Of a stretch of DNA of 64,000 bases, positions 9,528 to 60,748 are shown in pieces. Under the pieces are notes generated by a model, which was given only the letters and a program-made list of their open reading frames with translations, was not told where the DNA came from and searched no databases. The stretch covers positions 2,511 through 66,510 of the forward strand of contig CANGXP010000005.1 in assembly GCA_947457935.1 (NCBI GenBank), read 5' to 3'. The translations under genes were made by a program, and so were the position numbers. This DNA is from Alphaproteobacteria bacterium (GTDB taxonomy: Bacteria; Pseudomonadota; Alphaproteobacteria; JAJTHO01; CANGXP01). The stretch's first letter is position 1; every line of letters starts with the position of its first letter.

Positions 9528-11684
9528 ATGCACAGTGAGGAACTTTCTTCCGTTATTTTAAAAACAACATCTGCTGCGCTTGCGGTACGATTCCCCCCAT
9601 CTAGCCCAGAACGCGCCAAAATTAGACTACCCCTTTACGGCATAACCTTAGACGACATAAAAAAAGTTTGGCAAGATCAAGGGAAATTTGTTCCGCTGGA
9701 AGAAGCCTACACTGCACACGTTGCGGCACAACTCAAAGCAATTTGTTTAGAAAAAGGGTATGTTGCATATGATGGGGGGGTTGCCCTTGCACAAGCACAA
9801 AGCGCAAAGGACAATCTCACAGGTTTCTACAGGGGAGACTTCTGGGAAACAAACATCGAACTGGCGCAAGAATACGTCAAAATAAATAAAAATAACATCG
9901 CAACCGCTTACTATAAAGCGCGTCTAGGCGGCGATGAATTTGTGTATTTGACCGTTACTAAATCAGGCGTAACAGTACAGATTGCAGACTTTGCTAACCT
10001 AAGTGGGCTTAATCCCGCTCTCAGCAGTGAATTTGAAATTCTACAAGAGCTTAATCAGAAAGCATCAATAGCTAAGTTTGCTGGTGAGGAAAATAATGCT
10101 ATCACCACAGAAGAAAATCTAAACGAGGAAGCAAGCGCTAGCAATTCAAGACGAAAAACACAAGGGGATGATAGGCGCATAATTCCCCTAGGCGCACAGA
10201 GTGTAGAAGGCTACCAGCGTGCTGACGAGTACCTCAAAGCCATGGTGCAGCTCTATGGCGCAATAACGGAAAGACCAGCACTTCCAAACGAGGATCCAGA
10301 ACAAAAAGCACAACGTGATTTGAAGGATTTCTATACGGCACAGAAGGGATTTAATAAAGTTACAGGACTAGATCGAATTCAGCGCCTCAAGCAAGATACA
10401 GAGAACGTTACCGTTGGAACAGGGCTGGCAATCGCCTTCCAAATTTTGGATAAAAACAATACATCGCTTAATCTGCCACAATGGTGGGAAGCACAAATAA
10501 AAGAGCAGAAAGTACATTGCCAAACTATTGTTAAAGAGGGTGATCCACTCCCCTTGATAAGAATCGATAATCCTGAAGCTTTTGAGGCAACACTTAAAGT
10601 TTTTAAAGTTTTTATGGATCAATATACTAACGAGCTAAACTTAAAACCTTTTGTACAGCAGGACTCTGCAGTTCAAGAACCGCAAGCAAGCACTTTAGAG
10701 TTAAACTACGTTACATCAACAGGTAATGAATCGCAACCTTCAGCCAAGTCATTCCTCGAAGCCAAATTTGGGAACGCATATGCGATTGTCGCAAACGGCT
10801 TGGCAGGCGTTTCGCATGATAACGAGCAAAAGTATAAAAATATTCTCAATGGAATTTTGAATAACTACCTTGGCGGTGCAGGGCGCGTTCTACACCTTTC
10901 GCAAGACATTCAAAGTGCTGCCGATAAAGGCAACAGTCATGTTGGATTACTCGAAATTGGTAATTTCGCAGGAATGAACGCAGAATACACACACCATGGA
11001 TGCGATGCCATCAGCAGCACACTCTATGAAATAGCTAATAGCTCCATACAAAAATCCCTCTCAACACTAAAGGAACGGGGCGATGCCCCCGATACCTCTA
11101 GGGTATTACCCTACGAAAAAGTTGGCTTACGAGAGAGGGAGGATGCGGGAAAAATGGGCTTTGTCTTTGAAGGCATAACGGCAGAACAAGCGACTGCTTT
11201 GTTGGCTAAAGCTAAAGAAGACGTAGATAGTTTTATTGTTGCCCTCCATCTTGACAAGCTGCCCTGTCCTAAGGCGCCCGTTGCTGGTGTGCGAACGTAT
11301 ACAACTGTTAAAGCCATTCCGCAAGATTGCAATACCACCGAAGCTGCCTTTGCGTTCGTTGGCACCCTGCATGAACAACTAAACGCCACAAAAACAGCAG
11401 AGAAGTCAATGGCGGGGGAAGGAAGCGACTACGCCACACAACAAGTCGCTTGGCAAGAACATCAAGAAACAGCAAGCAGAGCCGTAAAGCCTCTTACTGA
11501 AGAACACAAGAATGCTTCTTTGCCCGCTCCAAAAGATATTGTCCGTGATTTACAGTTGAATCCCCCGCACCGCTTTGCGTCTAGTGTGTCTTTTGACTAC
11601 AGAAACAGTGATGTTTATCCTGATTTACACACATATGAAAGTCTCACCATCCAACTAGCAGCCGCCGCCTTATCTGGGCGTTAA
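9528..11684 (+). CDS. Large hypothetical protein (718 aa), low GC, with GGDEF-like motifs
   Basis: No confident family match. Contains ARLGGDEFVYL and a later segment LLEIGNFAGMNAEYTHHGCDAISSTLYEI...GKMGFVFEGIT resembling degenerate GGDEF cores. It is more AT-rich than its neighbours. Confidence 0.45.
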   Translation: MHSEELSSVILKTTSAALAVRFPPSSPERAKIRLPLYGITLDDIKKVWQDQGKFVPLEEAYTAHVAAQLKAICLEKGYVAYDGGVALAQAQSAKDNLTGFYRGDFWETNIELAQEYVKINKNNIATAYYKARLGGDEFVYLTVTKSGVTVQIADFANLSGLNPALSSEFEILQELNQKASIAKFAGEENNAITTEENLNEEASASNSRRKTQGDDRRIIPLGAQSVEGYQRADEYLKAMVQLYGAITERPALPNEDPEQKAQRDLKDFYTAQKGFNKVTGLDRIQRLKQDTENVTVGTGLAIAFQILDKNNTSLNLPQWWEAQIKEQKVHCQTIVKEGDPLPLIRIDNPEAFEATLKVFKVFMDQYTNELNLKPFVQQDSAVQEPQASTLELNYVTSTGNESQPSAKSFLEAKFGNAYAIVANGLAGVSHDNEQKYKNILNGILNNYLGGAGRVLHLSQDIQSAADKGNSHVGLLEIGNFAGMNAEYTHHGCDAISSTLYEIANSSIQKSLSTLKERGDAPDTSRVLPYEKVGLREREDAGKMGFVFEGITAEQATALLAKAKEDVDSFIVALHLDKLPCPKAPVAGVRTYTTVKAIPQDCNTTEAAFAFVGTLHEQLNATKTAEKSMAGEGSDYATQQVAWQEHQETASRAVKPLTEEHKNASLPAPKDIVRDLQLNPPHRFASSVSFDYRNSDVYPDLHTYESLTIQLAAAALSGR

Positions 11685-12977: not shown

Positions 12978-13217
12978 ATGCCAGATATTATTCTTCATGA
13001 TGTTCCTGATCATGTATTTGCGCTTCATCTGCAGCAAGCAGAACAAGAAGGCGTTGATATTGAGCAGCATATTCAAAGGATATTAGCTCAAAAACTTCCC
13101 TCAAAACGACTTGAAACGATTACCCAAATAGAAGCGTTGCGGCGTGAAATAAAAACTGAATACGGTGTTCTTGACGATAGCACGCCTCTTATTCGTGAAT
13201 TTAGAGATACACTCTAA
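12978..13217 (+). CDS. Ribbon-helix-helix antitoxin (VapB/FitA-like)
   Basis: 79-aa protein with Arc/MetJ-type N-terminus (IILHDVPDHVFALHLQQAEQEGVDIEQHIQRIL). TAATG overlap with the downstream PIN gene. Confidence 0.6.
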   Translation: MPDIILHDVPDHVFALHLQQAEQEGVDIEQHIQRILAQKLPSKRLETITQIEALRREIKTEYGVLDDSTPLIREFRDTL

Positions 13218-13636
13218 TGGTTGTTGTTGACGCAAGCGTTGCCGTAAAATGGTTTTTAGAAGAACAGGATAGCGACCGTGTTGCCCACCTGCTTTATGAA
13301 CAACAGTCTTTATGCGCCCCACAAATCATTTTCTTGGAAGTTTTTTCGGCTTTTTGTAAAAGAGCACGCGTTGGCTCTCTTAAAAAAGCAACTGCCAAAA
13401 AATTATGCGATCGTTGGTTTCTGGGTGGGCAAGATATTTTTTCGGAAATTTTCCCACCAGCTTTATTTATACAACAAGCCTATACAATAGCCTTAGAATA
13501 CAACCATGCCTTACCAGACTGTTTTTATTTAGCAGTTGCCTTGCAAGAACATCTCCCTTTATTAACGTTTGATGTCCGCCTCGCCAATCTTGCAAAGACT
13601 CTTAATATTCCAACCCCACTACAACACATTAATTAG
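13217..13636 (+). CDS. vapC: PIN-domain toxin VapC
   Basis: N-terminal VVDASVAVKWFLEE with conserved acidic residues of the PIN fold. Translationally coupled to the upstream RHH gene. Confidence 0.7.
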   Translation: MVVVDASVAVKWFLEEQDSDRVAHLLYEQQSLCAPQIIFLEVFSAFCKRARVGSLKKATAKKLCDRWFLGGQDIFSEIFPPALFIQQAYTIALEYNHALPDCFYLAVALQEHLPLLTFDVRLANLAKTLNIPTPLQHIN

Positions 13637-14591: not shown

Positions 14592-14797
14592 TGGTTGAAT
14601 ATTTTCGGGATTATTTCTATTTTTTATTGCGTTTTAAAATTACGATGCGCAAGTTAAATATCACTCACAAGAGCAACTTACTATACAAACTGTATATTTA
14701 TTTTTTACAACTAAGGTGCGTACACATTTCCACGCCCCGATCAGAAAGGACTGCTAGATGACAGAGCAGCATCAATCCGCCCAAGAAAAAGCGTTAC

Positions 14798-15121
14798 TTA
14801 ATCAAACAAATCGAAGATAGAGCGAACGCGGCTTTTCTTGCCATACTTGTGTTTGTAGTAATCATCGTAATCGTCATCATCCCGATAGTGGCGCGGGTGT
14901 GTTGGTTGCTGATAGTGTTGTTGGGGGCGGGTTTGCTGATACGCAACATACTCTTGTCTGTCCGCAACAACGGCAGATTGCACCGCGTTCAACAGTTTTT
15001 CTAATTCGCCTTTATCTAACCACACACCGCCTGAAACAGGGCAACGGTCAATCTCAATCCCATCGCGGATAATTTGCTGCATGGGGGTTTGCCCATCAAT
15101 CGGGCTTACAAGTAACGGCAT
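14798..15121 (-). CDS. Zinc-ribbon (TFIIB-type) domain protein, degenerate, with D/Y-rich tail
   Basis: IEIDRCPVSGGVWLDKGELEKLL matches the second half of the zf-TFIIB ribbon. The first CxxC pair is absent. The C-terminus is low-complexity (DDDDYDDYYKHKYGKK). Confidence 0.45.
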   Translation of the reverse strand: MPLLVSPIDGQTPMQQIIRDGIEIDRCPVSGGVWLDKGELEKLLNAVQSAVVADRQEYVAYQQTRPQQHYQQPTHPRHYRDDDDYDDYYKHKYGKKSRVRSIFDLFD

Positions 15122-15180
15122 TCTTTTCTCCCAAATTATAAAACTCTTTATTACATGGGAGCGCTGCGGAAAAATACAAG

Positions 15181-15468
15181 TTAATGCAATACAACTTTTT
15201 TAGGAGGCGCTTGTTCTTCCCGTGTTTCCAGCATCACACGATGCTCTTGCAGCAGCTCAAACGCTTCTTTATCAAAGCACAGCATGGCATGGGTTGTATC
15301 GCGCTGTTGGTAAAAACGAATGCCCAATTCAGAGAGAGCTTGGCAAATATACGTCACATCTTCCTGCGGCAAGCTGTGCATATCCATTTTCAGCGTATGG
15401 ACACTTAATGGCAAGGGTTTGTATTTTGCGATAAAGTCAATGTTGTGAGTGAGGGTTGAGGGTTGCAT
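15181..15468 (-). CDS. hypothetical small protein
   Basis: 95-aa ORF divergent from glyQS with no recognisable motif. Confidence 0.3.
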   Translation of the reverse strand: MQPSTLTHNIDFIAKYKPLPLSVHTLKMDMHSLPQEDVTYICQALSELGIRFYQQRDTTHAMLCFDKEAFELLQEHRVMLETREEQAPPKKVVLH

Positions 15469-15621
15469 TTGTTACGATCCTGTTAACTATTTTTTCATTA
15501 TGAGTAATTTTATTACAAAAAGCAAGATTATTTTGTTTGTAAGTTATACGTCGTGAGGGTTAAAAAAGTATTAGCGATGCAGCATAAAAAATCGATATGA
15601 TTATAAAAAAAGATCTCTCTG

Positions 15622-16124
15622 TTGACCTGAAACGCTTGTTTTGCAACGCTTTCAGCCGATTTTTTATCGAAAAATAAAATTGCAAGTCACTGATATATAA
15701 TAATATTTTTTGTAAGTAGTAGTGTACGAAAAAATAATAATTTTGCAGGATGACCTGAAAGGTGCTTTTTTCCTTGTTCTTAGCCGATTTTCTGCAAAAA
15801 TTATTATCGCTAAGCCATTGACAAATAATATTATTCTCTGCGATGTGTTTTGTAAGAAAAATACCTTGTTATGCAAAATGGCTTGAAAGCCGCCTTTTTC
15901 CTTGCTTTCAGCCGATAATGTGTAAAAAGCCACATACGCAACACATTGATAAACAACATTATTTTTTAATTGCACTCGCTATAAAAAATATTTCCGTCAT
16001 CAAGTTGCCTTAAGAAGGGCTTTTTTCTTGCCTTTCAGCCGATTTTCCCACCTCAATTTTTGCGTTTTTCATCAACACAAGTACTGTTGCGGAAGTGCCT
16101 ACAGTTTGCTACCGTGTGCGGATT
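15622..16124 (+). repeat. Tandem array of four degenerate ~127-bp direct repeats upstream of glyQS
   Basis: Units start at 15622, 15751, 15879 and 16005. Each begins TTGACCTGAAAG/TGGCTTGAAAGC/TTGCCTTAAGAAGG followed by a T-rich stretch and CTTTCAGCCGAT. Units 1-3 also share an internal ATTGA(C/T)AAA(T/C)AA(T/C)ATTATT segment. Confidence 0.6.
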
Positions 16125-19100
16125 ATGACACAGCCCCTCTCGTTCCAAAACATCATTCTCACCCTCCAGAAATTCTGGGGAAACCAAGGCTGTGCCTTGC
16201 TTCAGCCATATGATGTGGAGATGGGCGCGGGCACCTTTCACCCCGCAACAACCCTAAGATCTTTGGGCGAACAGCCGTGGCGCGCTGCCTATCCCCAACC
16301 CTGCCGCCGCCCTACCGATGGCCGCTATGGCGAGAACCCTAACCGCCTTCAGCACTACTATCAGTTCCAAGTTATCATAAAACCCTCGCCTGCCAACATC
16401 CAAGAATTGTATCTAGAAAGCCTGAAAGCCTTAGGAATAGACATTTCTAAGCACGATATTCGGTTTGTGGAAGACGATTGGGAAAGTCCTACTTTGGGGG
16501 CAGCGGGTCTTGGTTGGGAGGTGTGGTGCGATGGCATGGAAGTCACGCAATTCACCTATTTCCAGCAGGTTGGCGGCTTTGATTGCGCGCCCGTTTCTGC
16601 CGAGATTACCTACGGATTAGAACGCCTTGCCATGTATATTCAAGGCGTGGAGAATGTGTATGATTTGATTTACGTTGAAGGGGATAGGCACGAGGCACGA
16701 GGCACGAGGGAAGAAATGATTTCCTCTTCTCGCGCCTCGTGCCTCGAGCCTCTTACCTATGGAAACGTCTTCCTCCGCAACGAACAAGAATTTTCCGCCT
16801 ATAATTTTGAGCACGCAACCACCGAAAAGTTATTCCAACACTTTGCTGATGCCGAGCTAGAATGCCAGCACTTGCTCGCACAAAACCTTGCCCTGCCTGC
16901 CTACGACCAGTGCATCAAAGCCAGTCATACCTTTAATTTGCTGGATGCACGGCGGGTGATTAGTGTTTCCGAACGCGCCAGCTACATCGGGCGGGTACGC
17001 GCTCTTGCCAAGGGATGTTGCGAGGCATGGCTTGCGAAAGCGGCAGCAAGCAACAATCTTCAAGGTGCAGCACAAGAAAAAACTTTCTCCAATCCCCAAA
17101 CTCCAAACCTGAAAACCGAAAACAGCTTTTTATTGGAACTCCTTACCGAAGAAATCCCCGCACGGATGCAGCAAGCGGCACGGGCAGATTTATTACGGCT
17201 ATTCACGCAAAAGCTGGAAAAGCGCGGTATTACAGGGTTTAACGCAACAAGTTGTGTCACGCCACGCCGCCTTGCGTTGTTGGTGGAGGGCTTACCTGCC
17301 GCACAACCCGCCACCACGGAGGAACGGAAGGGCCCCAAAGTGGGCGCACCACAACAGGCGTTGGATGGCTTCTTGCGGAGTGCGGGTATTGAGGCAAGTA
17401 CGCTAAAACCTGTTCACAATCTCGCTAGACTGCAAGCGAAAATTGATGTTCCCGAGAACCAGCGCGCAGTGTATCCTTCATACATGAGCACTGGAAGCGC
17501 AGAGAACATCAATTTGCAGCAAGGTATAGTAGAGAGTGGGGATAGGTTTTTAGAACAGCGTGATGACGGCAAAGGCAACCTCTATTATTACGCGACGTTA
17601 CGCACGCCAGAAACCCCGCTTTCTGGGGTTCTTCCCGTTGTTATCAGTGAAATTTTGCTAGAATTTGCATGGGCAAAATCCATGCGTTGGGGCAATGGCG
17701 CGTTCCGTTGGGTGCGTCCGTTGCAAAATATTTTGGCGGTGCTGAATGGCGTACCGCTCGCGGGCGGCTTTGACCTTGGCAATCATCTTGAGAACTACCC
17801 TGCTGGCTATGTGACCGAATGGCATAGCGGGCAAACTGTGTTGGTGTTTAATAACACAACGGTGGGGCATCGCGTTCATGCGCCTGAAGCATTGCAAATC
17901 AACACGCCGCAAGAATATTTGAGCGCACTGCGTAATGCCTCTGTTGAGCCATGCGTTGAGGCACGCAAAAAGAAAATTATTGAGCACGCAACATTGCTTG
18001 CACCCAAGGGTTTAACCATTGATTTTAATGAGAAATTATTGGAAGAAGTGGCGGGCTTAAATGAGCATCCCGTGCCGTTATTGGGGCAAATTGACGCGAA
18101 ATTTATGACCGTGCCGCCTGAAATTCTCACCACAAGCATGGCGAGTCACCAGCGGTATTTCGCGTGTTATGATGCCGCTGGCACACTCCAGCCCTATTTT
18201 ATCGCGGTTGCCAACCAAAACAGTGATGATGCGGGTCTCGCCATTATTCAAGGCAATGAAAAAGTGCTCCGCGCCCGCCTGTTTGACGCGGCGTTTTTCT
18301 GGGAAAACGATAAAAAGCAAGCTGTTGAACGGGGTATGGAGAGCTTCCTTGAGCCGCTGAAGAACGTGGTGTTTCATCAGGGTTTGGGGACGGTGTATGA
18401 CAAGGCGATGCGGATTGCTGCCCTTGCTATGTCCTTCGCTGACGTTGTAGGGGGCGATGCATCTCACATACACAAGGCAGCCCTCCTTGCCAAAGCAGAC
18501 CTTTCCAGCGGGGTTGTGGGGGAGTTCCCCGAATTACAGGGGATTATGGGGAGTTATCTAGCAACGGCAGCGGGGCTAGATAAAAATATCGCTCTTGCTA
18601 TTCGTAAGCATTATCAGCCGATTGGTGATAGCCCTGTGCCTGCCAACCCTGTGAGTGTGGCGATTGCCTTAGCCGATAAAATGGACACGCTGGTGGCGTT
18701 TTTTGCGATTGGCGAAAAGCCTACGGGTTCAAAAGACCCGTTCGCGTTGCGCCGTGCCGCGATTGGCATTATTCGGTTGATTGTGGAAAATAAACTTCCT
18801 TTAAGCATTAAAAATTTAGTTCTGTGGGGATGCATTGAGTTTCAGCATCAGCATATAAAACCAATAGATGGCAGCGTTGTAGACGATTTAACAAACTTCC
18901 TTAAAGATCGCTTCGTGGTCTACCTCCGCGATACCCACACTCTCCGCCCCGACATCATTCACGCTGTTTTGGCTGCACAACCACAGTTTGGTGACCTTGT
19001 TGCCCATAAACAGGCGATTGAGCAAACACAAGCGTTTCTTGCTTTGAACCCGAATGCGCCTGCCTTAGTGGCGGGGTATAAACGGGCGGTGAATATCCTA

Positions 19101-19406
19101 AACATTGAAGAGAAGAAAGATAAACGCCGCTATGACGGCATTGTTGACGCGGCATTGCTGCAAGACGCTGCGGAAAAGGCATTGGATGCAGCGTTAAACG
19201 CTGTGACCACAGCGCTTGCAACAACAGCGGACTACACCGCAATGCTGGAGCAACTCGCAACCCTGCGCCCCGCCATTGACGCGTTTTTCACCGAGGTGTT
19301 GGTGAATAGCGAGGATGTGAGCGTGCGGGAAAATCGCTTGTTTATGTTGCACTCGTTCCGCGCACTCGTGCAGCGCGTGGCGGATTTTGGCGGGGTGGAG
19401 GGGTAA
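16125..19406 (+). CDS. glyQS: Fused glycyl-tRNA synthetase alpha+beta subunits
   Basis: The N-terminal ~300 aa align to GlyQ ([36 protein letters not shown]). After a short linker the sequence continues as GlyS ([16 protein letters not shown] ... [16 protein letters not shown]). It is a single uninterrupted ORF. Confidence 0.9.
16688..16751. repeat. Imperfect ~64-bp palindrome embedded in-frame in the glyQ portion
   Basis: GGCACGAGGCACGAGGCACGAGGGAAGAAA-tgatttc-CTCTTCTCGCGCCTCGTGCCTCGAGCC. It encodes about 18 extra residues ([18 protein letters not shown]) relative to E. coli GlyQ between VYDL and YG(D/N)VF. Confidence 0.6.
17400..17550 (+). mobile_element. Decayed in-frame copy of the 129-bp palindromic element inside the glyS portion
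   Basis: CAGCGCGCAGTGTATCCTTCATACATGAGCA...AATTTGCAGCAAGGTATAGTAGAGAGTGGGGAT aligns to the element core (CAGCGGCGCGAAGTGTACCTCTTCGTACATGAGAGA...AGTTTGCAGGCATGGGTAATTTTAAAGTGGAATG). GlyS is about 43 aa longer than E. coli GlyS at exactly this position. Confidence 0.45.
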
Positions 19407-19974: not shown

Positions 19975-20028
19975 TACCATCACAAAAAATTCTTCAGGCA
20001 AAATCGCCACCCCTTCCCAGATAGGCTC

Positions 20029-20763
20029 TTAAAAAGGACAGGTTAGGACTTGCAGGGTATTTCTCGCTGGCATGTCAGTTTTCGCTAAGACAACGTAAAG
20101 TCGCTCCGCTGCATCATAATAGGGGCATATTTTGTAGTTACCCGCCTCAATATCGAGGCTACAGCAAGAGAGCGTATCAGAGAAAACATATATTTTCCCT
20201 GTGGTAACGCTGATAATTGCCGCGTCGAATGCCCCGACCATTTTACGGGCTTCTTTGTTGGGCAAAAGTGGTTCTGGCACATCAACCAGCAACAGTGTAA
20301 CGCTAAAAACACCATCTGCCCCCGTGTTCACCCGCAAAAATACCCCTTCATTAATAAGTTTGCAGGATGCATCATCATCAAGAGCAATCAGCCTCTCTTT
20401 ATCCAAAGCATCAGCGATTAAAAATGAACCCCTTTCCGTTTTAAGATTTTTTCTCAATTTTTGCTGAATAACAGGTTCCCTGCCAAATAATAAGAAGCTC
20501 TGCTTGGCTTGGGCACGGGTAAGAGCTTTTTGCAGCGTCGCTCTATCAATATTTTCGAAAGAGAGTTGCAGAATAGTTTTCAGGGCGCCAATATAAAATT
20601 CTAAAGGCTCAAGCGCTTCTTCCTTGGCGACAGCGGTAACAATATCATTGCCTACCGTACGGAAAAATTTAATTTTTTCTCGGGTCGGCATGCCGATGCT
20701 TTTTTGCCAGTCCGCTTTTATAGAGTCGTACGTTACGTTTTTAATATATTTATGATTCGGCAT
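20029..20763 (-). CDS. hypothetical protein (244 aa), last gene of the kinase/cyclase operon
   Basis: No recognisable domain. Only 32 nt separate it from the cyclase gene on the same strand. Confidence 0.45.
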   Translation of the reverse strand: MPNHKYIKNVTYDSIKADWQKSIGMPTREKIKFFRTVGNDIVTAVAKEEALEPLEFYIGALKTILQLSFENIDRATLQKALTRAQAKQSFLLFGREPVIQQKLRKNLKTERGSFLIADALDKERLIALDDDASCKLINEGVFLRVNTGADGVFSVTLLLVDVPEPLLPNKEARKMVGAFDAAIISVTTGKIYVFSDTLSCCSLDIEAGNYKICPYYDAAERLYVVLAKTDMPARNTLQVLTCPF

Positions 20764-20795
20764 ATGTTCCTCAAGGTGTGATTGTGATAAAGTAT

Positions 20796-22214
20796 CTATT
20801 CCCGCCGCAACGTATACACCTGTAAGCCATCCATCACCTCGCCATCCAGCGGCACACAGTCTCGCACATGGTCTTCATGCAGCGCCGCAATAGTTGATTC
20901 GAGGAGAATAATCGGGGCTTGGTGCTTTTTGCTCACGGGTTGCAGTTTGGCGGCTTGGTTCACGGCATCACCAATCACGGTATAATCCATTCGTTCGGGT
21001 GCACCAATATTGCCCGAAACAACAGTGCCGCTGGCCATACAAATGCCGATTCTAAGCGGCATGTTTATCTCTTGCCCCAGTGACTCCACCCGTTCTAAGA
21101 TGCGTTTAGCGGAAATGAGGGCGTTGTCCGCATCTTGCCCGCTGCTATAGGGCACACCGAATACGGCAAGCACGCCATCGCCCATAAATTTATCAATAAT
21201 CCCGTCATTACCCCGCACTATACGCACAATTTCTGTGAAATATAAATTCAAGATACGCACTGTCTCGCTTGCGCCTAATTGCCGCGTTAGCCCTGTGAAC
21301 CCGCGAATATCCGCAAATAAAATGGTCGCTTCCTGCTCAACACCGCCTAAACTGTTGGCATTTTCTGAGAGCATTTTATCCGCCACACCTCTGGGGAGAT
21401 AGCGCGAAAGCGTGATGCGTGACCGCCACAAGTCTGCATTGTTAAAGGCGGTTGAGGCAATAGTGGCGAGGGTTGCAACGCGTTGCAAATAAATGGTATC
21501 GAACGTGAAATCAGGCTGTAGGGACACGAGAAACAGGCATAAGCCGCTATCTACATGCAAGGGATAGCATAAGGAGGCGTGCCACGGCTCTGCCTCTTGT
21601 TGCTGGTTTAAAATGCGGGGTTTATCGGGGAGTATAATTTCTACCTGCTCCCCTGCTTGAAAGATGCCCGCACCTGCTAACACTGTTCCATCCCGCTGTA
21701 GCAACGCCACGCCATCCATGGCAGCAAAATAATTGATGAGTGTTTCCGCAATGTCTTTGTTATCAACCTGCCCAATAAACGCTTGCGCTGCTTTTAATAC
21801 CACCGCGCTTTCACGATATTGTGTGAGCATTTCCGTTGAAAGCTGCTGGCGCACTTGGTCTTGCGCCCAAATGTGCTGCAAGGTGCTGCCCACCAACGCA
21901 ACAAGCGCATCGAGTGCAGGCGAGAATTCTGCCGTTGCAAAGCACACTTCTAAGGATAGGTGTTGTTCCGCGTTAATCGGATAGGCAACACGATGCGCCA
22001 TGGGGAGGAACTTAGCCTCAGGGTATTGATAAATAACAATATCTCCATCTTGCACGCGGAATGTCACTTTATTATCGGCCGCATTGGCAGCAAGCAGCCA
22101 AAACTCCTCCTCCGCTAAGCGGCGACACAGTTTATACAACCGATGGACAAGGGTGCTTTTATGACGCACGGCGCAGCTCCTGTCTTGCCAGCGCGAGCAC
22201 TTTATCGGGGTCAA
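20796..22214 (-). CDS. Class III adenylate/guanylate cyclase with N-terminal GAF-like sensor region
   Basis: The C-terminal domain carries ILFADIRGFTGLT ... DKFMGDGVLAVFG ... PLRIGICMASGTVVSGNIG, a canonical class III cyclase catalytic core. The preceding ~280 aa are GAF-like. The annotated ATG overlaps the receiver gene by 56 nt, so the true start may be internal. Confidence 0.75.
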   Translation of the reverse strand: MTPIKCSRWQDRSCAVRHKSTLVHRLYKLCRRLAEEEFWLLAANAADNKVTFRVQDGDIVIYQYPEAKFLPMAHRVAYPINAEQHLSLEVCFATAEFSPALDALVALVGSTLQHIWAQDQVRQQLSTEMLTQYRESAVVLKAAQAFIGQVDNKDIAETLINYFAAMDGVALLQRDGTVLAGAGIFQAGEQVEIILPDKPRILNQQQEAEPWHASLCYPLHVDSGLCLFLVSLQPDFTFDTIYLQRVATLATIASTAFNNADLWRSRITLSRYLPRGVADKMLSENANSLGGVEQEATILFADIRGFTGLTRQLGASETVRILNLYFTEIVRIVRGNDGIIDKFMGDGVLAVFGVPYSSGQDADNALISAKRILERVESLGQEINMPLRIGICMASGTVVSGNIGAPERMDYTVIGDAVNQAAKLQPVSKKHQAPIILLESTIAALHEDHVRDCVPLDGEVMDGLQVYTLRRE

Positions 22215-22545
22215 ACGGCTTATTCAGATAAAAATGTGCGCCTGCCTCTACACTTGTTTGGTGCGCACTTTCTTCCCCGCGAGCAGTGAGAATTGCCACA
22301 ATGGTGTGCTGTAGATAGGGATTCTTACGAATGGCGGCGCACACTTCAAACCCTGATAAACGAGGCATCATCACATCGAGAAATACAAAATCAGGTGCAA
22401 TAATTTCTGCTAACTCCAAGCCCTCTTGCCCATCACTGGCGGTGACAATCCGCACGCCCTCCTCTTCCAACGGCTCAAGCGTTTGCTCCAGCAAAGCGCG
22501 GATGTATGCTTCATCTTCAACAATGAGAATGGTTTTAGGACTCAT
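22159..22545 (-). CDS. Single-domain response regulator (CheY-like receiver)
   Basis: 128 aa with IVEDEAYIR, the phospho-acceptor context FLDVMMP, and the conserved T/K (ILTARG...NKPF). No output domain. Confidence 0.85.
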   Translation of the reverse strand: MSPKTILIVEDEAYIRALLEQTLEPLEEEGVRIVTASDGQEGLELAEIIAPDFVFLDVMMPRLSGFEVCAAIRKNPYLQHTIVAILTARGEESAHQTSVEAGAHFYLNKPFDPDKVLALARQELRRAS

Positions 22546-24488
22546 GCTGTAGTCTCATTACATATGGTGTCATTAAGGGGTAAGGTGATGGTGAAGGTTG
22601 TGCCTTGCCCGAATACAGAATCAAGCGTTATCGTGCCTTTATAATGTTCCACAATTTGCCGCGAAATAGCAAGCCCCAGCCCTGTTCCTTTGGGCTTATT
22701 TTTCAGATTATCCTCATTAATACTGGCTTGCTGAAAACGCTTGAAAATTTTGTCAAAATCTTCCTCGCGAATACCCATGCCTGTATCCGTAATAGAACAA
22801 TACAGATGCGCTTCTGCAGCCCAACACTTTAATGTTACCGTGCCTGTATCCGTGAATTTTACCGCATTCACAAGAAGATTGATGAGCACTTGCTGGAGTC
22901 TATCGGGGTCAATCACAAGGGTGGGCAGTGTTTGGGGCAAATCGAGGACTAATTGCACTGTTGGTTTTTTGGCAAACTCTTCCGCTGTTGCTTGTTTCGT
23001 GAAGTGAATTACCTCTATGATATTCACCTGTTTGTCATTCCACGGCATTCTTCCTGCATCAATGCGTGCAACATCCAGCACATCATCAATCAGGCGATTG
23101 AGTCTATCTGTTTCTTTAATAATAATGTCCAAATTACTGATAATACGTTCACTTTTTTTATTAAGCCCCGCATAATTTTCCACAACAGGGGCGATGAAGC
23201 GGCTAAAGTCATCCGTAATGCGCCGTGAAAATCCATAGATAGTGGTGAGGGGCGTTTTCAATTCATGGGAAACCGACGAGACGAAATAATTTTTTGCTTG
23301 GGTTAATGCCAGCAATTTTTCATTGTTTTCTGCGGCAGCTTGCAAAGATTGCGATAACTGTTGCACCCCTTTATTAATTTCAACGATTTCTTCTAAGTTT
23401 CCTTCCGTACGCAACTGCGCACCAACAAACTGGTGTGTTGCAATACTTCGTAATGCACGGGCAGCTTTAACAATAGGTTGCACGACCTTCAGGCGAATCG
23501 TTAAACCCAACAGCAGAAAACCCGCTGCAAGCATGGAGAAAGCAACTTGGGTTTTTTTTAGGGTACTTTCTGCATTATTAGCGATTTTTGTTGCCCCCTC
23601 ACTCGCAAGTTGCGAGGCATTACTGGTGATGTCTCCCGCTATGAACGCAAGTGTTTCATTGATTGTTTTGAGGCGCACGGGTTTATTGGCTATTAATCTT
23701 AATACTTCACGTTGAATAACAAACAAAGAAGATAATTTCTTGTATTCAATAATTATTTTTCGTATTTCTTGGCGTTTTTCCCATGCAGGTAAATTATCAA
23801 CAAGTGCAACAGCAACTTCCAACAACCCATTGAAAAAACTTTCTTCATTGTATGTCTCTGCTAATGTTGCTGTTTCCTTTAAACTTGATAACCGTAGGCG
23901 CAACGATAAGAGCACATTTTTAAGTTGCGAGGCATAGAGGTACTCTTGCAGTGCATCTGCATCAGATTTTTTTGCTTGCTGCATTTTCTCTGACTTTTCT
24001 AGAATTAACTTCGTTAGCACTGTGTTCGCTTGATAGAGTGAGAGATCTGCGCCCCGCACCTTATTCAAAATTTCCGTTCTGTTTTTTTGAATAGCATCCT
24101 TCTCCTCTTTCAGGAGGCTAATTTCCTTAAAAACACTGTCAAAACCCTTTTGCATGAGAGGGGGGGTGTTTTCTTTGAGTGTTTCTGTCAAGGCGAGTGC
24201 CTTTAGCAAGGCTTCATCCCTTGCCTTAACTGTATCTGATTCCGACATGATATTACTAAACAAACCAAGCTGACGTACCTGTAATGCTTTTTCGTGTTGC
24301 TTTAATGCCTCAGGAATAATATCGGTGCGGGTTTTTTGTGCAAGCTGTGTAAGATTTTGTAAATCCAACGCAATAATCATCGACACGGCAATAATGAACA
24401 AGAAGGCAAGTGCCGTCACCCCGTAGGCAAGGTTTTTCAAACTTAAAGGGGGAGCTTTGCGCTCTGTCTCTTCAAAACTTTGTATCAT
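22542..24488 (-). CDS. Sensor histidine kinase with large periplasmic helical sensor domain
   Basis: Two TM segments flank a roughly 280-aa helical extracytoplasmic region. HisKA H-box (SSVSHELKTPLTTI) and HATPase_c motifs (GTGLGLAISRQIVE ... GQGTTFTITLP). AT-rich gene. Confidence 0.85.
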   Translation of the reverse strand: MIQSFEETERKAPPLSLKNLAYGVTALAFLFIIAVSMIIALDLQNLTQLAQKTRTDIIPEALKQHEKALQVRQLGLFSNIMSESDTVKARDEALLKALALTETLKENTPPLMQKGFDSVFKEISLLKEEKDAIQKNRTEILNKVRGADLSLYQANTVLTKLILEKSEKMQQAKKSDADALQEYLYASQLKNVLLSLRLRLSSLKETATLAETYNEESFFNGLLEVAVALVDNLPAWEKRQEIRKIIIEYKKLSSLFVIQREVLRLIANKPVRLKTINETLAFIAGDITSNASQLASEGATKIANNAESTLKKTQVAFSMLAAGFLLLGLTIRLKVVQPIVKAARALRSIATHQFVGAQLRTEGNLEEIVEINKGVQQLSQSLQAAAENNEKLLALTQAKNYFVSSVSHELKTPLTTIYGFSRRITDDFSRFIAPVVENYAGLNKKSERIISNLDIIIKETDRLNRLIDDVLDVARIDAGRMPWNDKQVNIIEVIHFTKQATAEEFAKKPTVQLVLDLPQTLPTLVIDPDRLQQVLINLLVNAVKFTDTGTVTLKCWAAEAHLYCSITDTGMGIREEDFDKIFKRFQQASINEDNLKNKPKGTGLGLAISRQIVEHYKGTITLDSVFGQGTTFTITLPLNDTICNETTA

Positions 24489-24584
24489 GTCGCTAAAGTC
24501 TCACAAAACCTTTAACAAAGCAACAAAGAGGTGATACACGTCACATAGAGGGCTTATAAACATCAAGCAGTCAGTTAGTAAGAA

Positions 24585-24625
24585 ATAAGGGCTTACGCGA
24601 GAAAATGATACGCATAAGCCCTGCA
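24585..24625 (-). terminator. Candidate terminator hairpin between small ORF 24646-24906 and the kinase operon
   Basis: AGGGCTTACGCG ... CGCATAAGCCCT forms a 12-bp stem (11 of 12 paired) downstream of the minus-strand ORF, followed by a T-rich tract on that strand. Confidence 0.35.
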
Positions 24626-24645
24626 ATTAAATTTTTTATTATCTA

Positions 24646-24906
24646 CTATTTTATAGCGGTGTTAGAAAACAGTTGCATGACCATTTGCATCGCACTTCCT
24701 TGCACTTGTTGCTTAAGATTTTTTGGCAAAGGAACAACAGATACGTCGCCATACCCTGAATGAGACTCTAAATGCCCTTCTGAAGTAAAACGCACAGTTG
24801 CGTTTTTGCCAACATTATCAGGATCAAATGCTCTGATTTGGCTTGTGATTTTTTCCGCCACACTTGCGTCAATTTTAATTCCCTGCTTGTCAAATAAGTT
24901 TATCAC
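24646..24906 (-). CDS. hypothetical small protein
   Basis: 86-aa ORF with no motif recognised. Confidence 0.3.
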   Translation of the reverse strand: MINLFDKQGIKIDASVAEKITSQIRAFDPDNVGKNATVRFTSEGHLESHSGYGDVSVVPLPKNLKQQVQGSAMQMVMQLFSNTAIK

Positions 24907-25038
24907 AGCAACATTAAGAACCAGTCATCTAAAAAATTTTAGGAAATAGCAGGCGGAATTTTTGTCGGATTACGAGGAGCGAGGATTGCGTGTTCTTTGT
25001 TGTGTTGAGAAAAATATCTTTTGGTATAGTCTCTAAAG

Positions 25039-30940: not shown

Positions 30941-31333
30941 ATGACATCTCATCCCTTTTTTCGCTTCCTCCTTGTTGGTAGCGCCGCGTTTGTGGCGGAT
31001 ATTGTTTATACAAAAGCGCTGCTATTATTTGCTGTGCCGATTGTGCCGCTGCGCGTCAGCTCCTTTCTGATATTTTCCGCGCTGGTGTGGTATGCCAACA
31101 GAACGTATAGTTTTCAGGTCAAAACACCCCCAACATGCAGAGAATACTTGAAGTTCATGGCATCTGCAAGCGTAGGCGGGGCGGTGAATGTTGCGGTGTC
31201 CAGCTATGTTTTACACACCTATACCACCCTGCCCTTCCCTACCACGCTTGCCATTGCAGCAGGGGTGGCGAGTGGCATGGTGTTTAATTTTATGGCGATG
31301 CGCTATGTGGTGTGGGGAAAAGAAAAGAGTTAG
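30941..31333 (+). CDS. GtrA-family membrane protein
   Basis: Four-TM small protein (FFRFLLVGSAAFVADIVYTKAL ... FNFMAMRYVVWGK) typical of GtrA-like proteins. An alternative upstream start exists at 30896. Confidence 0.55.
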   Translation: MTSHPFFRFLLVGSAAFVADIVYTKALLLFAVPIVPLRVSSFLIFSALVWYANRTYSFQVKTPPTCREYLKFMASASVGGAVNVAVSSYVLHTYTTLPFPTTLAIAAGVASGMVFNFMAMRYVVWGKEKS

Positions 31334-32202
31334 GCGGGCTGTATTGTGTAGGCTGCTTCCTTTTCTTGGCATCTTTTAATAAGATTAATGGCGTTCGCAT
31401 ACTGCCCTATCGTCCCTGCATTGGGTGCATTATACCCTGTTTCTTCAGAGGGTTGATATACCTTTGCGTGCAGTGCATTGCCATATTGCATTAAAATATC
31501 AAGATTTTCGCCTTTTGTGGCGATAACCATTTCTTGCAATTCTTGAAGACGTTCTTCTGCCGCACTCATGCGAGTTGTTTCAACAGCTTGTTCAACACCT
31601 TTGTTTTCTTGCGTCATCTCGAAAGCAGTTGTTGTTTTTGCGGTGACAGCACTATCGCTACCACGACGCGCAACATCGCCCATCACTTTTTCCGCTGCCT
31701 TTTCCATGGTAGCAGCATCTTGCTGTGAGGATACTAAACCCGCTGTTTTTAGCCCCATTCTATCTGCGAGAACTGCTGCTTCACGGTTTTGTTTAAAAGC
31801 ATTTTGTGCTTGTTGCGGAGAATCTTGCTCTTGTAACCGCTTCGCAACTGTTTGCTTATCGACATTTCCAATTAATAACACTGCGCCTGTGGCAGCAAGT
31901 ACATTTGCATTCTTAGGTGCAGCTTGCACAGTGCGCGAATCGCGAAGTCCTAATCTTGCTTCTATATCTTGCGTTTTTGTTTTGTCTTGTTGTGCTGTTA
32001 CTGTCATCATTGCACTAATTGTCCCTATCGTTTCCGCTATTTTCTCAAAAATATTTGTTTTTCGTTGCGGAAAATTTTCACGAACATATCGCTCTTGTTG
32101 TTGTGTATTAATCGCGAATAACCCTGCTGGCTGCATTGCAGCAAGCGAATTGTTTGATTTCTCAACAGGGATTGAACGGTTGTCCATATCAATACTATAC
32201 AC
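31330..32202 (-). CDS. hypothetical Q/A-rich protein (290 aa)
   Basis: Low-complexity, helix-prone sequence. No domain recognised. Forms a two-gene minus-strand unit with 32294-33241. Confidence 0.4.
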   Translation of the reverse strand: MYSIDMDNRSIPVEKSNNSLAAMQPAGLFAINTQQQERYVRENFPQRKTNIFEKIAETIGTISAMMTVTAQQDKTKTQDIEARLGLRDSRTVQAAPKNANVLAATGAVLLIGNVDKQTVAKRLQEQDSPQQAQNAFKQNREAAVLADRMGLKTAGLVSSQQDAATMEKAAEKVMGDVARRGSDSAVTAKTTTAFEMTQENKGVEQAVETTRMSAAEERLQELQEMVIATKGENLDILMQYGNALHAKVYQPSEETGYNAPNAGTIGQYANAINLIKRCQEKEAAYTIQPA

Positions 32203-32293
32203 TATATGATGAATAAATCTTGTATTTTCTTAATGTATCTCAAAAAACTCTATTTTGCAAGTGATTTTTGCAAAATCGTTAACTATTTGTTAA

Positions 32294-33241
32294 CTAAATC
32301 ACTTTATGTGCCATGTTTTTTATTGAAGCCTGTGCAATGATGGTAAGCAACTGACTGTCTTGCTTATACATTTCTGAATTAAGCGGTATTAACAAAGCAC
32401 CCTCCCCCTTATCCATAAATCGCGTATTATAATTATCACCTAATGCACCGTGCCAATAGCAGACATCCCCAATAGCTTTCACCCATGCATTAAGGAATTC
32501 TTGATTTGTGGGACGTTGATAGTCTGCTGTTAGCAGACCTCTAGGTTGCAATTCTTGTCGCTCAATCTGCACTGCATGCAAAATAGTTTCTGCAGGGTTT
32601 ATCACAACATCACTGTTAAACTCTGCGCTATTACGAGGGAATGTGTCGTGCAAAGCATAATACACCGCCCCTAACACTTCTTCTTTGTCTGAAATACCAT
32701 TTCGAGGTAGGATATGCGCTAATAAGTTATGCCGTGGATTAGCCGTAAAATCTTGCTGTAAATTATGTTGCTGACAAAATGCCGCTTCCACTATCGGGGC
32801 AGGGACAAAGGTGAGTTGCGGGTTTCCTTCTGGTGTTTGGTGGCTTTTTCCTTCAGCATACCGCTGTTCAAAAATCTCTATGTTGCTATAAAAAGCCTGT
32901 AATGCTGCAAGAGGCCAAACAGGGAAGTTTTCGTCGTGGTGTCTTGGGCGCTGGGAGAGGGAAGCAGACGGCTGTAATTGCGTGAGCGCAAATCGCGCAT
33001 GACTGGATAAAACATGAATGGCTTGCGCGTACTCACTCCCTATTCTGAGTTGTTGACTTAAACTCATTGCTTCGCGCACAAGAGGAATTTTAATATCAGG
33101 TTCAATATTACCAATGAAAGTGGCTATCTTTGAAAAGTCACGCTCCCTATAAAGTTTTTGAAATTGCGCCTGTCCTTCTGCTATAAGAAGACGCCCTAAG
33201 GATAATGCTTCATCCATAAACCACCACTTTTTACTATACAA
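32294..33241 (-). CDS. hypothetical protein (315 aa)
   Basis: No domain recognised. Divergent from purB. Confidence 0.4.
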   Translation of the reverse strand: MYSKKWWFMDEALSLGRLLIAEGQAQFQKLYRERDFSKIATFIGNIEPDIKIPLVREAMSLSQQLRIGSEYAQAIHVLSSHARFALTQLQPSASLSQRPRHHDENFPVWPLAALQAFYSNIEIFEQRYAEGKSHQTPEGNPQLTFVPAPIVEAAFCQQHNLQQDFTANPRHNLLAHILPRNGISDKEEVLGAVYYALHDTFPRNSAEFNSDVVINPAETILHAVQIERQELQPRGLLTADYQRPTNQEFLNAWVKAIGDVCYWHGALGDNYNTRFMDKGEGALLIPLNSEMYKQDSQLLTIIAQASIKNMAHKVI

Positions 33242-34751: not shown

Positions 34752-35315
34752 TCAACAGAGCCTAGAAAGCGTACCCTCTTCCGTCACAATACAGTCAAGC
34801 AATACATCATGCTCTTCCAACGGTAGCACGTCCGCCTGTTGGCACGCATACCCAACACCAATCGTCTTACCCTGCCAACCTTTTGCTTTTAAGGCAGCCA
34901 GCGTTTTATCGTAATACCCTTTGCCACTGCCCAAACGCCCACCCTCTTTGGTGAACGCAAGGAGCGGCACAAGAATAACGTCAGGGACAACTGGCATTCC
35001 GTCTTTGGGCGATAAAATACCATATTTCCCTACGCTCAACGCACTTTTATAGCCATTCCATGGCAGAAAATCGAGTGTGCCCTCTTCCGTTACACGCGGC
35101 AATAGAAGACGGCATTGCTTGTCTTGCAGCACCTGCAGCAGCGGCAAAATATTCAACTCATGGTTATGGGGATAATACGCCGCAACCACCGCACGGGGCT
35201 TTATGAGTGTTGATACTAAGGGAATAATCGCACTGGTGGCTAAAGAGGCATGATGCGGGGGAATGGCAGCACGAAGGGATTTATAGTGCGCTCGAAGCGT
35301 CTTCTTATTCATCAT
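34752..35315 (-). CDS. 5-formyltetrahydrofolate cyclo-ligase
   Basis: 187 aa with the GSGKGYYD motif and family length. Confidence 0.75.
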   Translation of the reverse strand: MMNKKTLRAHYKSLRAAIPPHHASLATSAIIPLVSTLIKPRAVVAAYYPHNHELNILPLLQVLQDKQCRLLLPRVTEEGTLDFLPWNGYKSALSVGKYGILSPKDGMPVVPDVILVPLLAFTKEGGRLGSGKGYYDKTLAALKAKGWQGKTIGVGYACQQADVLPLEEHDVLLDCIVTEEGTLSRLC

Positions 35316-35586
35316 TATAGGTCTTTACCGATACAAAAAATGTAGCCACACCTGCCGTTGAGTGATTGATTCCACAGACCCTATATAATAGGTGGGTGCC
35401 AGATGATAAAAACCACGGTTCTTACCAGCGCCAGATCCCTGTGAAATCGTATGGACCGAGGAATGACAAAACCCTATCGCACAGGGCAGCTACATCAGAC
35501 ACTATACAACAAACCGCCGCCCAATACAACTTTGCATTAGGGCTGTTTTTCTGCTATGGTTAATGTTCACATTAGGGAGAAACGTC

Positions 35587-36084
35587 ATGCCCAAAGATAA
35601 ATCCGTCACCACCCTCACCGTTACCCCCAAAGCCAGCGCGAAAGAAAACCGCAAGGTCGTCATTGCCATCCTGCAAGCACAACTAGCGGATTCGTTTGAC
35701 CTCTACAGCCAAATCAAGCAAGCACATTGGAACGTGAAAGGCGCAGAATTTATCGCGCTCCATGAACTATTCGACACAGTTGCCGCAACAGTTCTCCTTG
35801 CAACAGACACAATTGCCGAACGCATTCTCCAACTCGGCGGGGAAGCGGCAGGCACAGCACGATTTGTGGCAAAAAAGTCCACCTTGCCTGAATATCCGCA
35901 CCTCACGGCAGATTGCAAACAGCACGTTAAAGCCGTGAGCACCGTGTTAGAATTATACACCACCGCCTCCCGCGAGGCCATCAACAGCACGGATGACTTG
36001 GGCGATCCCGTCACGGCTGATATTCTCACAGGTATCACCCGCGATATTGATAAGCAGCTGTGGTTTGTCTCATCGCACTTATAG
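35587..36084 (+). CDS. dps: Dps-family DNA-binding ferritin-like protein
   Basis: LQAQLADSFDLYSQIKQAHWNVKG ... ferroxidase site residues. GGGAGA ribosome-binding site upstream. Confidence 0.9.
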   Translation: MPKDKSVTTLTVTPKASAKENRKVVIAILQAQLADSFDLYSQIKQAHWNVKGAEFIALHELFDTVAATVLLATDTIAERILQLGGEAAGTARFVAKKSTLPEYPHLTADCKQHVKAVSTVLELYTTASREAINSTDDLGDPVTADILTGITRDIDKQLWFVSSHL

Positions 36085-38688: not shown

Positions 38689-39003
38689 TATGGCTGCTCC
38701 TATTTTTGGGCAAAAAAAACGCCGCCTCCCGTGGGGGAGACGACGTTATTGTAAAACTTTTGAGTGCACTTACGGCAACTCTAAACCTACAGTACCCTAT
38801 TTTTTAGAAAATGTCTATAGGGGGGACGTGATTTTTTTCTACATGCATTAATCAATAAAAGCTCATAAATGTTATTTAATTGCTTTTTCGTAACAAAACT
38901 GCTACAATTTGTTTAGATTTTGCTTTGTGCTTGCACAAGCTCCGCTTCGCGGCATCTCTCTAAAAAATAGATGAAAAACTGTTGTTTATCCTTAAGGAAA
39001 ACT

Positions 39004-49688: not shown

Positions 49689-49931
49689 ATGGCGCAACTC
49701 ATGGATACACTCACCACAAAAGTCTTTCAAAGCGGCGGCAGCCAAGCGGTGCGCTTGCCTAAAGAATTTCGCTTTATAGGAGAGGAAGTTTTTATCTCGC
49801 GTGATGGCGAGAAAGTTATCTTATCTGCCAAGCCCCCCTCATGGGATAGCTATTTTTCTCAAGCGACTCTTGCGCCCGATGATTTCATGGCTGGCGTGGA
49901 AGACTTACCGCCTCAAACACGGTCTTTTTAA
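49689..49931 (+). CDS. vapB: AbrB/SpoVT-type antitoxin VapB
   Basis: [18 protein letters not shown] swapped-hairpin motif. TAATG coupling to vapC. Confidence 0.7.
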
Positions 49932-55894: not shown

Positions 55895-55898
55895 AATT

Positions 55899-60334: not shown

Positions 60335-60748
60335 TTAAGCAAGGAGCGCATCGCGTAGGGGTTGCAGCATTGAAGCACACTCTTGTGCTGCAGCAGGGTT
60401 ATTGTTTTTGTTAATGGTATCAAGGCTGTAAATCATGAATTGCAGGAGTTTTTGCAGGTTTTCTGCAACATGGTTGCCATCACTTGCATCAATCGCTTGG
60501 GTTAAATGTTGGAGCAACGCTTTGCTTTTATTGACAGCCTTACTACGCGCCAATTTATTTTCCACCAAGCAATAGTAAGAAATCTCATTAAGGCTATTCA
60601 CCGCCTTATCAATAAGCCCCGCAACCTCTTTCGGGGTGAGATATTGTGATGTAACCGCAATATCTTTAACAACAATAGCATGAACAGAGTGCATAATAAT
60701 CCTCAAACATAATAAATATATACTTTGGTTGTGCAAAGAACGTGCCAA
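60335..60748 (-). CDS. FliS-family chaperone-like protein
   Basis: [22 protein letters not shown] ... [10 protein letters not shown] fits the FliS helical-bundle pattern. A more likely start is at 60694. Confidence 0.4.

Follow-up and report, generated by a model that had tools for sequence, protein, structure and literature searches.

A 64-kb stretch of alphaproteobacterial DNA (contig CANGXP010000005.1; the whole stretch analyzed is called the window here) encodes, one after another on its minus strand, a sensor histidine kinase, a stand-alone receiver, a class III nucleotide cyclase and a 244-amino-acid (aa) protein. We found that the kinase, receiver and cyclase genes form what is, on comparison of the sequences, a co-inherited module, and that the 244-aa gene is most parsimoniously seen as a lineage-specific passenger lying between the cyclase gene and an SH3 gene. 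Taking both results jointly, we lean somewhat toward a reading in which the three proteins make up a two-component cyclase module resembling cyanobacterial CyaC, distributed over separate polypeptides, with the fourth gene as a passenger. A preliminary description of the locus had grouped all four genes into one operon coupling two-component signaling to synthesis of a cyclic nucleoside monophosphate (cNMP); its account of four co-directional open reading frames (ORFs) separated by overlaps or a 32-nt gap was borne out, and its notion of the four genes as a conserved unit was not. The main features of the locus are the following.

22542–24488, minus strand: sensor histidine kinase, 648 aa (Pfam, hydropathy)
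22159–22545, minus strand: stand-alone CheY-like receiver, 128 aa (Pfam Response_reg, residue reading)
20796–22169, minus strand: soluble cyclase, probably a class IIIb-type adenylate cyclase, 457 aa from the GTG at 22169 (Pfam, alignments)
20764–20795, minus strand: 32-nt spacer from the cyclase stop to the start of the 244-aa gene (sequence reading)
20029–20763, minus strand: 244-aa accessory gene (profile search, AF2, Foldseek)
19975–20807, no strand assigned: 833-nt presence/absence segment containing the 244-aa gene (blastn block boundaries, junction sequences)

Full-length relatives of the cyclase are few, with one at 94% identity, two at 81% and four at 38–41%. Neither GTDB genome contigs nor JGI metagenome contigs yielded more members when scanned with a family-specific N-terminal alignment, and the family appears to be confined to a handful of metagenomic lineages. 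In all contigs with readable context (the window, L021, L006/L007, the P0007 contig, L009/L010 and L028), the genes for a kinase of 642–651 aa, a receiver of 128 aa and a cyclase of 446–467 aa directly follow one another in this order, each stop overlapping the next start; in the window, the end of the kinase gene and the beginning of the receiver gene share 4 nt (ATGA). The triad is found in two kinds of surroundings, SURF1...SH3 in the close relatives and MlaA-MlaC...MaoC(-RibF) in the distant ones, and it extends to the most distant locus, L009, with identities to the window of 38% for the kinase, 50% for the receiver and 38% for the cyclase. For each of the three genes, comparison of the window with L021, the 94% relative, gave an omega of 0.05–0.09, indicating purifying selection. 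Because adjacency and translational coupling of the three genes hold in all relatives examined, we infer that they constitute a functional unit, and the phospho-dependent control of cNMP synthesis suggested in the preliminary description fits this pattern.

The receiver consists of a Response_reg domain spanning residues 6–119 of 128 (E = 4.8e-26, Pfam) and has no output domain, as had been described. Its pocket residues can be read directly, with an acidic pair (D11/E12), T87, K109 and the phospho-acceptor Asp57 (codon 22375–22377), and the protein is 97% identical to its L021 counterpart and 90% identical to that of L006. Receiver domains fused to the cyclase (PF00072 + PF00211) are common among the nearest homologues of the catalytic domain, including P0046, P0049, P0061 and P0072, and these fusions lend independent, Rosetta-stone support to a link between receiver and cyclase. 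Stand-alone receivers usually work on unlinked partners, and the best-surviving alternative, which we regard as unlikely but not negligible, follows that general habit: the receiver would be a diffusible single-domain regulator or phosphate sink for other targets, like CheY, DivK or CpdR, and the cyclase, which has a sensor-like N-terminal half of its own, would be controlled independently by a small ligand through its GAF-like or N-terminal domain, with the genes just sharing an operon. Set against this are a coupled co-inheritance that stays strict from 38% to 94% cyclase identity and across two neighborhoods, the occurrence of receiver-cyclase fusions among the nearest relatives, and the lack of any further conserved output gene next to the kinase-receiver pair.

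The kinase carries HisKA and HATPase_c domains with E values of 2.6e-16 and 5.8e-29, each above its Pfam cut-off, and its phospho-accepting His408 (codon 23265–23267) lies in the motif SHELKTP. Its parts are arranged as follows.

24363–24431, minus strand: first transmembrane (TM) segment, TM1, about residues 20–42 (hydropathy)
23547–24362, minus strand: periplasmic sensor of no known family, helix-rich as judged from composition (without a Pfam match)
23478–23546, minus strand: second transmembrane segment, TM2, about residues 315–337 (hydropathy)
23052–23297, minus strand: HisKA domain (Pfam)
22572–22910, minus strand: HATPase_c domain (Pfam)

Two hydrophobic segments, at about residues 15–45 and 313–337 by hydropathy, flank a region of roughly 270 aa in which leucine, lysine, alanine and glutamate are abundant and proline and glycine scarce. 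These features point to a membrane sensor with two transmembrane segments around a helical extracytoplasmic domain, so that the earlier picture of a transmembrane kinase with a large periplasmic sensor holds in its kinase domains and hydrophobic segments, with the word "helical" reflecting composition only. The sensor region had no Pfam match at E ≤ 10 and four homologues only in a word-index search. The preliminary description had further suggested that the AT-richness of the kinase gene could reflect horizontal acquisition. The gene is indeed AT-richer than the cyclase gene (GC content 0.418 versus 0.509), and its value is only 1.4 standard deviations (sd) under the average for genes of the window (0.479, sd 0.043). 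The same kinase-cyclase offset is found in the close relatives L021 and L006, which argues against a recent transfer. It is gone in L009, where the kinase gene has a GC content of 0.59, the same as its neighbors, and where the encoded kinase is an ortholog that aligns from end to end, through the sensor as well, at 38% identity, a further point against acquisition. By these comparisons, the low GC content of the gene is a long-standing feature of its composition in the sub-clade of the window.

The longest ORF of the cyclase begins at a TTG at 22214 (20796–22214, 472 aa) and would overlap the receiver gene by 56 nt. The true start is probably the GTG at 22169, which has GGAG 7 nt upstream, coincides with the starts of the homologues and matches the 457-aa gene call on the source contig; the overlap with the receiver gene is then 11 nt. 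Three regions can be distinguished in the protein.

21834–22169, minus strand: N-terminal region of unknown type (no GAF or PAS match)
21411–21833, minus strand: single, divergent region resembling a GAF domain (GAF_2 below threshold, hhalign)
20874–21335, minus strand: catalytic domain (Pfam Guanylate_cyc)

The catalytic domain matches Guanylate_cyc (PF00211) at 2.7e-16, with 60.1 bits against a gathering cut-off of 21.9 in Pfam, and profile matches to PDB entries were to Cya2, CyaB, bPAC and CyaC, with Pseudomonas aeruginosa CyaB (3r5g) among the best (E = 8e-29). Using the family alignment together with an alignment to the solved Cya2 and CyaB, we read the catalytic residues, which are numbered here according to the 472-aa longest ORF. 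The metal-binding Asp302 (in FADIRGFT) and Asp346 (in GDG) are invariant in all eight family members, as are the adenine-specifying Lys342 and the class IIIb Thr412; Cya2, a guanylate cyclase, has a glutamate where the window cyclase has Lys342. The transition-state Asn419 is present, and the position of the transition-state arginine is occupied by Lys423 (codon 20946–20948). All eight family members have lysine at this position, compared with none of 113 other homologues, 107 of which have arginine. By profile and by five of six canonical residues, the enzyme is thus class III with a non-canonical transition-state residue, which leaves the earlier label "canonical class III cyclase" standing for the fold and the metal, Lys/Thr and Asn residues and failing it at the arginine. 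The protein is probably an adenylate-type, class IIIb enzyme that makes cyclic AMP (cAMP).

The transition-state arginine matters for catalysis in class III cyclases, and its replacement throughout the family raises an alternative that we consider improbable, in which the cyclase is crippled and serves as a nucleotide-binding or scaffolding pseudo-enzyme within the phosphorelay and is no source of cAMP. The restriction of the lysine to this family would suit such a protein. The remaining catalytic residues are nevertheless invariant, the cyclase gene is under purifying selection, lysine is still positively charged, and distant lineages encode a Crp-type receptor close to the triad. This Crp-family protein (cNMP_binding + HTH_Crp_2; L028:1-615 and L009:1-531) is 87.5% identical between the two loci, and its gene lies about 5 kb, or six genes, upstream of the triad kinase gene in both, which makes the protein a candidate receptor of cAMP in the clade. 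No Crp-like ORF was found in the 64-kb window with the L028 Crp and an Escherichia coli CRP sequence as queries.

The preliminary description had also placed several GAF-like domains in front of the catalytic domain. We found evidence pointing to one. GAF_2 was matched with E = 0.0038 and 17.9 bits, below the cut-off of 28.6, and the Pfam search with the whole cyclase protein gave no GAF match at E ≤ 0.01. When residues 128–268 were compared by hhalign with a 68-sequence GAF alignment assembled from search hits, the probability was 70–82% (P = 1e-5 to 4e-5) and the score 36.7, compared with at most 17.4 for 20 column-shuffled controls. Residues 16–127 showed neither GAF nor PAS similarity by hhalign, so the plural did not stand. 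The results weakly suggest a single, degenerate GAF-like domain. A PAS identity for the N-terminus, raised by a BLASTP alignment to the PAS domain of P0041, was rejected, as hhalign gave no PAS similarity (P = 0.12–0.31).

Two known systems frame how the triad may work. In Spirulina CyaC, an intrinsic kinase phosphorylates a receiver and the class IIIb cyclase becomes active (PMC3009899), and in P. aeruginosa, phosphorylated PilG is required for activation of CyaB by an unknown mechanism (PMC12129077). CyaC of Spirulina and Anabaena has the order receiver-GAF-GAF-histidine kinase-receiver-class IIIb cyclase on a single polypeptide. The window locus shares with it the logic of kinase to receiver to class IIIb (Thr-type) cyclase and, if the weak GAF-like match holds, the use of GAF-type modules, but its three components are distinct ORFs, each starting and stopping on its own, its kinase is a membrane sensor whose periplasmic domain belongs to no known family, and its cyclase has one degenerate GAF-like domain and a lysine for the transition-state arginine; it is therefore not a member of the CyaC type. 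The likeness to the Pil-Chp system lies in PilG, a receiver without an output domain that must be phosphorylated to activate the class IIIb CyaB in trans. PilG, however, is fed by a CheA-type chemosensory kinase, and PilG is not encoded beside cyaB; CyaB is membrane-anchored (MASE2) and needs FimL/FimV, whereas the window combines a classical HisKA kinase, a receiver and a soluble cyclase in one translationally coupled unit. The triad would thus act like a hard-wired PilG-CyaB pair without belonging to that architecture. Differences are likewise seen in the receiver-cyclase fusions P0061, P0049 and P0072, whose catalytic domains are 40–44% identical to that of the window cyclase: the receiver is part of the polypeptide, the N-terminal and GAF-like region of the window family is missing, and the arginine is kept.

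On the CyaC-like reading, a periplasmic signal would set the balance of kinase and phosphatase activities of the kinase at His408, and phosphate would move from this histidine to Asp57 of the receiver. The phosphorylated receiver would then bind the regulatory N-terminal half of the cyclase dimer, made up of the region of about 110 aa and the GAF-like domain, and switch cAMP synthesis. More speculatively, the invariant lysine in place of the transition-state arginine might keep basal activity low, such that output would need activation. The 244-aa gene would be co-transcribed by read-through, and the role of its product would be independent of the cyclase. A bolder version of this scheme, which we offer only tentatively, is that the receiver docks on an undescribed N-terminal module (the ~110 aa plus a ligand-blind GAF-like domain) and rescues a near-silent Arg-to-Lys enzyme in trans. 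If true, the locus would be a tractable model for the step from PilG~P to CyaB, in uncultured Holosporales-like bacteria that are probably associated with protists. Two-component control of cAMP is well documented for fusions and genetically established for PilG-CyaB, and our findings leave current understanding intact. For the step in which a class III cyclase is activated by a free receiver, a compact triad with a soluble cyclase would be a simple biochemical system, and the invariant transition-state lysine is a natural variant worth measuring.

The history of the 244-aa gene differs from that of the triad. Downstream of the cyclase, the gene is found solely in the window and in L021. Each of the two 81% lineages lacks the 244-aa gene and has the convergent SH3 gene immediately after the cyclase, and at the L006 junction 28 nt stand in place of the 833 nt of the window (19975–20807); no repeat or target-site duplication was visible at the edges of the 833-nt cassette in comparison with L006. 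In L009/L010, the distant lineage with readable downstream context, MaoC comes after the cyclase. On parsimony, this presence/absence pattern argues for a single insertion in an ancestor shared by the window and L021, an origin that fits the lower GC content of the gene (0.39–0.43; 0.43 in the window, versus 0.50–0.51 in neighboring genes). The four genes are thus not co-conserved, an outcome that the preliminary description had itself named as speaking against its operon.

A third copy of the gene, with 82% protein identity, was found in a metagenome-assembled genome labeled Holosporales (L001; GCA_046336535.1, contig JBKDHE010000150.1), where it lies between maf and an RND transporter gene with no intact cyclase adjacent. 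The copy sits in a low-GC island (L001:9400-10900; 0.32–0.45) among genes of 55–62% GC, and directly upstream of it, at 9905–9985, is a window-like remnant of about 80 nt of a cyclase 3' end, interrupted by a TGA in frame and by the loss of 1 nt. This scrap indicates that the L001 copy derives from a window-like junction of cyclase and 244-aa gene. Its synonymous divergence (dS) from the window copy is 0.54, compared with 0.91 for the syntenic L021 copy. The L001 copy has an omega of 0.18, and this purifying selection suggests that the function of the gene has been kept without an intact neighboring cyclase. No cyclase was present beside the six other family contexts examined.

These observations bear on the proposal that all four genes make up one system, with the 244-aa protein serving the cyclase as an effector that responds to cNMP. 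The arrangement of the two genes is suggestive of it. A GAGGAA ribosome-binding site lies in the 32 nt that separate the stop codon of the cyclase from the 244-aa gene's ATG, and a scan of the cluster for consensus promoters and terminators gave counts at the level of shuffled sequence, with none above chance; given this spacer with its ribosome-binding site and without a terminator, read-through transcription into the 244-aa gene is likely. In addition, the arrangement is kept in two lineages, and the L001 copy stems from the same junction. We nevertheless hold the four-gene system to be very improbable, since the 244-aa gene is missing from the two 81% lineages and from distant lineages, its L001 copy is under purifying selection with no intact cyclase adjacent, its product has a ComJ/CgnJ-like fold and no cNMP-binding fold, and other family members are never beside a cyclase.

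That fold emerged from structure prediction. The 244-aa protein had no match in Pfam (0 at E ≤ 1), NCBIfam or PDB sequences, consistent with the earlier statement that it has no recognizable domain. A word-index search found four close homologues only, and an exhaustive profile search expanded the family, which is unnamed, to 91 cluster representatives of about 240–260 aa at E < 1e-3. From a 52-sequence family alignment, AlphaFold2 (AF2) produced a model with a mean predicted local distance difference test score (pLDDT) of 92.4, in which two domains can be seen.

20485–20730, minus strand: N-terminal four-helix bundle, residues 12–93 (AF2)
20077–20469, minus strand: C-terminal ComJ/CgnJ-like beta-sandwich, residues 99–229 (AF2, Foldseek)

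The sole significant matches of the model to solved structures in Foldseek were CgnJ (6i86_A, E = 1.3e-6, TM-score on target 0.65) and ComJ (4mqd_A, E = 2.6e-6, 0.67). No CAP-type, GAF-type or other cNMP-binding fold was seen with AF2 and Foldseek, so that the structure prediction suggested in the preliminary description yielded a helical bundle and a beta-sandwich instead of a cNMP-binding fold. Viral structures gave no match either. ComJ, an inhibitor of the Bacillus subtilis nuclease NucA, and CgnJ, a DUF protein of the crocagin cluster, share the beta-sandwich with the C-terminus of the 244-aa protein at 11–14% identity; the N-terminal four-helix bundle is extra in the 244-aa protein, and there are no nuclease genes or genes for peptides that are made on ribosomes and modified afterward (RiPPs) near it. 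Among 52 family relatives, 18 match DUF6386 (best 6.6e-5) and 12 match DUF4241 (best 2.8e-4), and all of the per-member matches inspected were under the gathering cut-off; a literature search on DUF4241 found nothing.

The 244-aa gene has an omega of 0.13–0.18. Source names of family members include Legionella, Candidatus Obscuribacter and Holosporales, and the distant members lie in unrelated contexts, such as beside ParE/RelB, behind Fic near a type VI secretion system (T6SS) and beside an SNF2 helicase. In the Fic case (L026:3624-5792), a 263-aa member is encoded 43 nt downstream of a 444-aa Fic-domain protein, beside TssM/TssL (IcmF-related, DotU), and this single case would be in keeping with a family function of the inhibitor or immunity type. 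There was no conserved partner gene for the family; a 132-aa lysine-rich ORF in L001 and ORFs of 112 and 189 aa in L018 are mutually unrelated and not found in the window. On the passenger reading, the 244-aa protein would be cytoplasmic, and a protein-binding or inhibitor-type role for it is a guess. The fourth gene provides a modeled fold for an unnamed family of ~250-aa proteins and a clear case of transfer that left a scrap of its neighbor as a footprint.

A pyrimidine-cNMP (PycC) identity of the cyclase is not supported, as the PADLOC PycC models match ordinary adenylate cyclases equally well or better and their matches are therefore non-specific. The related idea of a Pycsar-like antiphage pair, in which a pyrimidine cNMP made on infection would trigger the 244-aa protein as a killing effector, has the order of cyclase then small unknown protein and a best PycC-model match of 1.5e-24 in its favor, and we give it hardly any credence, given that PAS-GAF and receiver-fused adenylate cyclases match the same models at 4.9e-28, 2.7e-27 and 2.1e-25, that the adenine-type Lys/Thr residues are kept, that the cyclase is tied to the two-component pair and not to the 244-aa gene, and that the 244-aa protein has no PADLOC match and no TIR, TM or cNMP-binding domain.

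Several points weigh against the CyaC-like module with a passenger gene. The link between receiver and cyclase is indirect, drawn from adjacency here and fusions elsewhere, and the fused receivers are only 26% identical to the window receiver, with linkers that are not homologous to the N-terminus of the window cyclase. The family comprises only about eight metagenomic sequences. Within the cyclase, the GAF-like assignment falls under the Pfam threshold, and with lysine in place of arginine, catalysis could be weak or altered. As for the passenger, the 244-aa gene lies at a short distance behind the cyclase gene and has been retained there in two lineages, and the L001 genome might hold a triad elsewhere, which would allow a functional link in trans.

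The triad and its passenger are flanked on one side by a fused glycyl-tRNA synthetase gene and the convergent SH3_4 gene and on the other by SURF1, a K+ channel gene and genes for cytochrome oxidase subunits. The synthetase alpha and beta subunits form one ORF of about 1100 aa (16095–19406; PF02091 + PF02092; a single product on the source contig), and directly upstream of this glyQS gene an intergenic or short-ORF stretch at 15500–16000 forms a GC trough of 0.31. Between the kinase start and SURF1 lies a 491-nt segment (24548–25038) with 42 nt in its place in the collinear L021, so that the module is bordered by another indel here; the segment contains an 86-aa ORF (24646–24906, minus strand, GC content 0.40) without a Pfam, NCBIfam or PADLOC match. 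In the 81% relative L006, genes for a 94-aa protein and a Zn-ribbon (TFIIB-type) protein are directly upstream of the kinase (L006:24-931). Their counterparts in the window, at 81–89% nucleotide identity, are beyond glyQS at 14795–15537, and these different sites indicate that the neighborhood was rearranged between close lineages.

Elsewhere in the window, a 6S RNA (35339–35495, minus strand; Rfam RF00013, 60.9 bits) lies directly upstream of a 5-formyltetrahydrofolate cyclo-ligase ORF (34752–35315), the classical ssrS-ygfA linkage. Large ORFs of 718, 869, 290, 315 and 258 aa at 9528–11684 (plus strand), 36079–38688 (minus strand), 31330–33241 (minus strand) and 38971–39747 (plus strand) had no Pfam match at E ≤ 0.001. 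Reading of translations yielded candidate VapB/VapC-type pairs of antitoxin and PIN toxin at 12978–13636 and 49689–50338 (both plus strand), as well as, at 53883–56020 (minus strand), a candidate Dcm-like cytosine methyltransferase with a possible restriction enzyme after it. A soluble protein of 379 aa (60725–61864, plus strand) has an N-terminal signaling domain of the methyl-accepting chemotaxis protein (MCP) type (PF00015, 2.9e-22), and no TM segment or recognized sensor domain was detected in it. Finally, a 481-aa protein (42328–43773, plus strand) matches GINT1_N at 2.6e-42; this N-terminal domain of the plant/eukaryotic glucosamine inositolphosphorylceramide transferase is unusual in a bacterium, and the protein may be relevant to a host-associated lifestyle.

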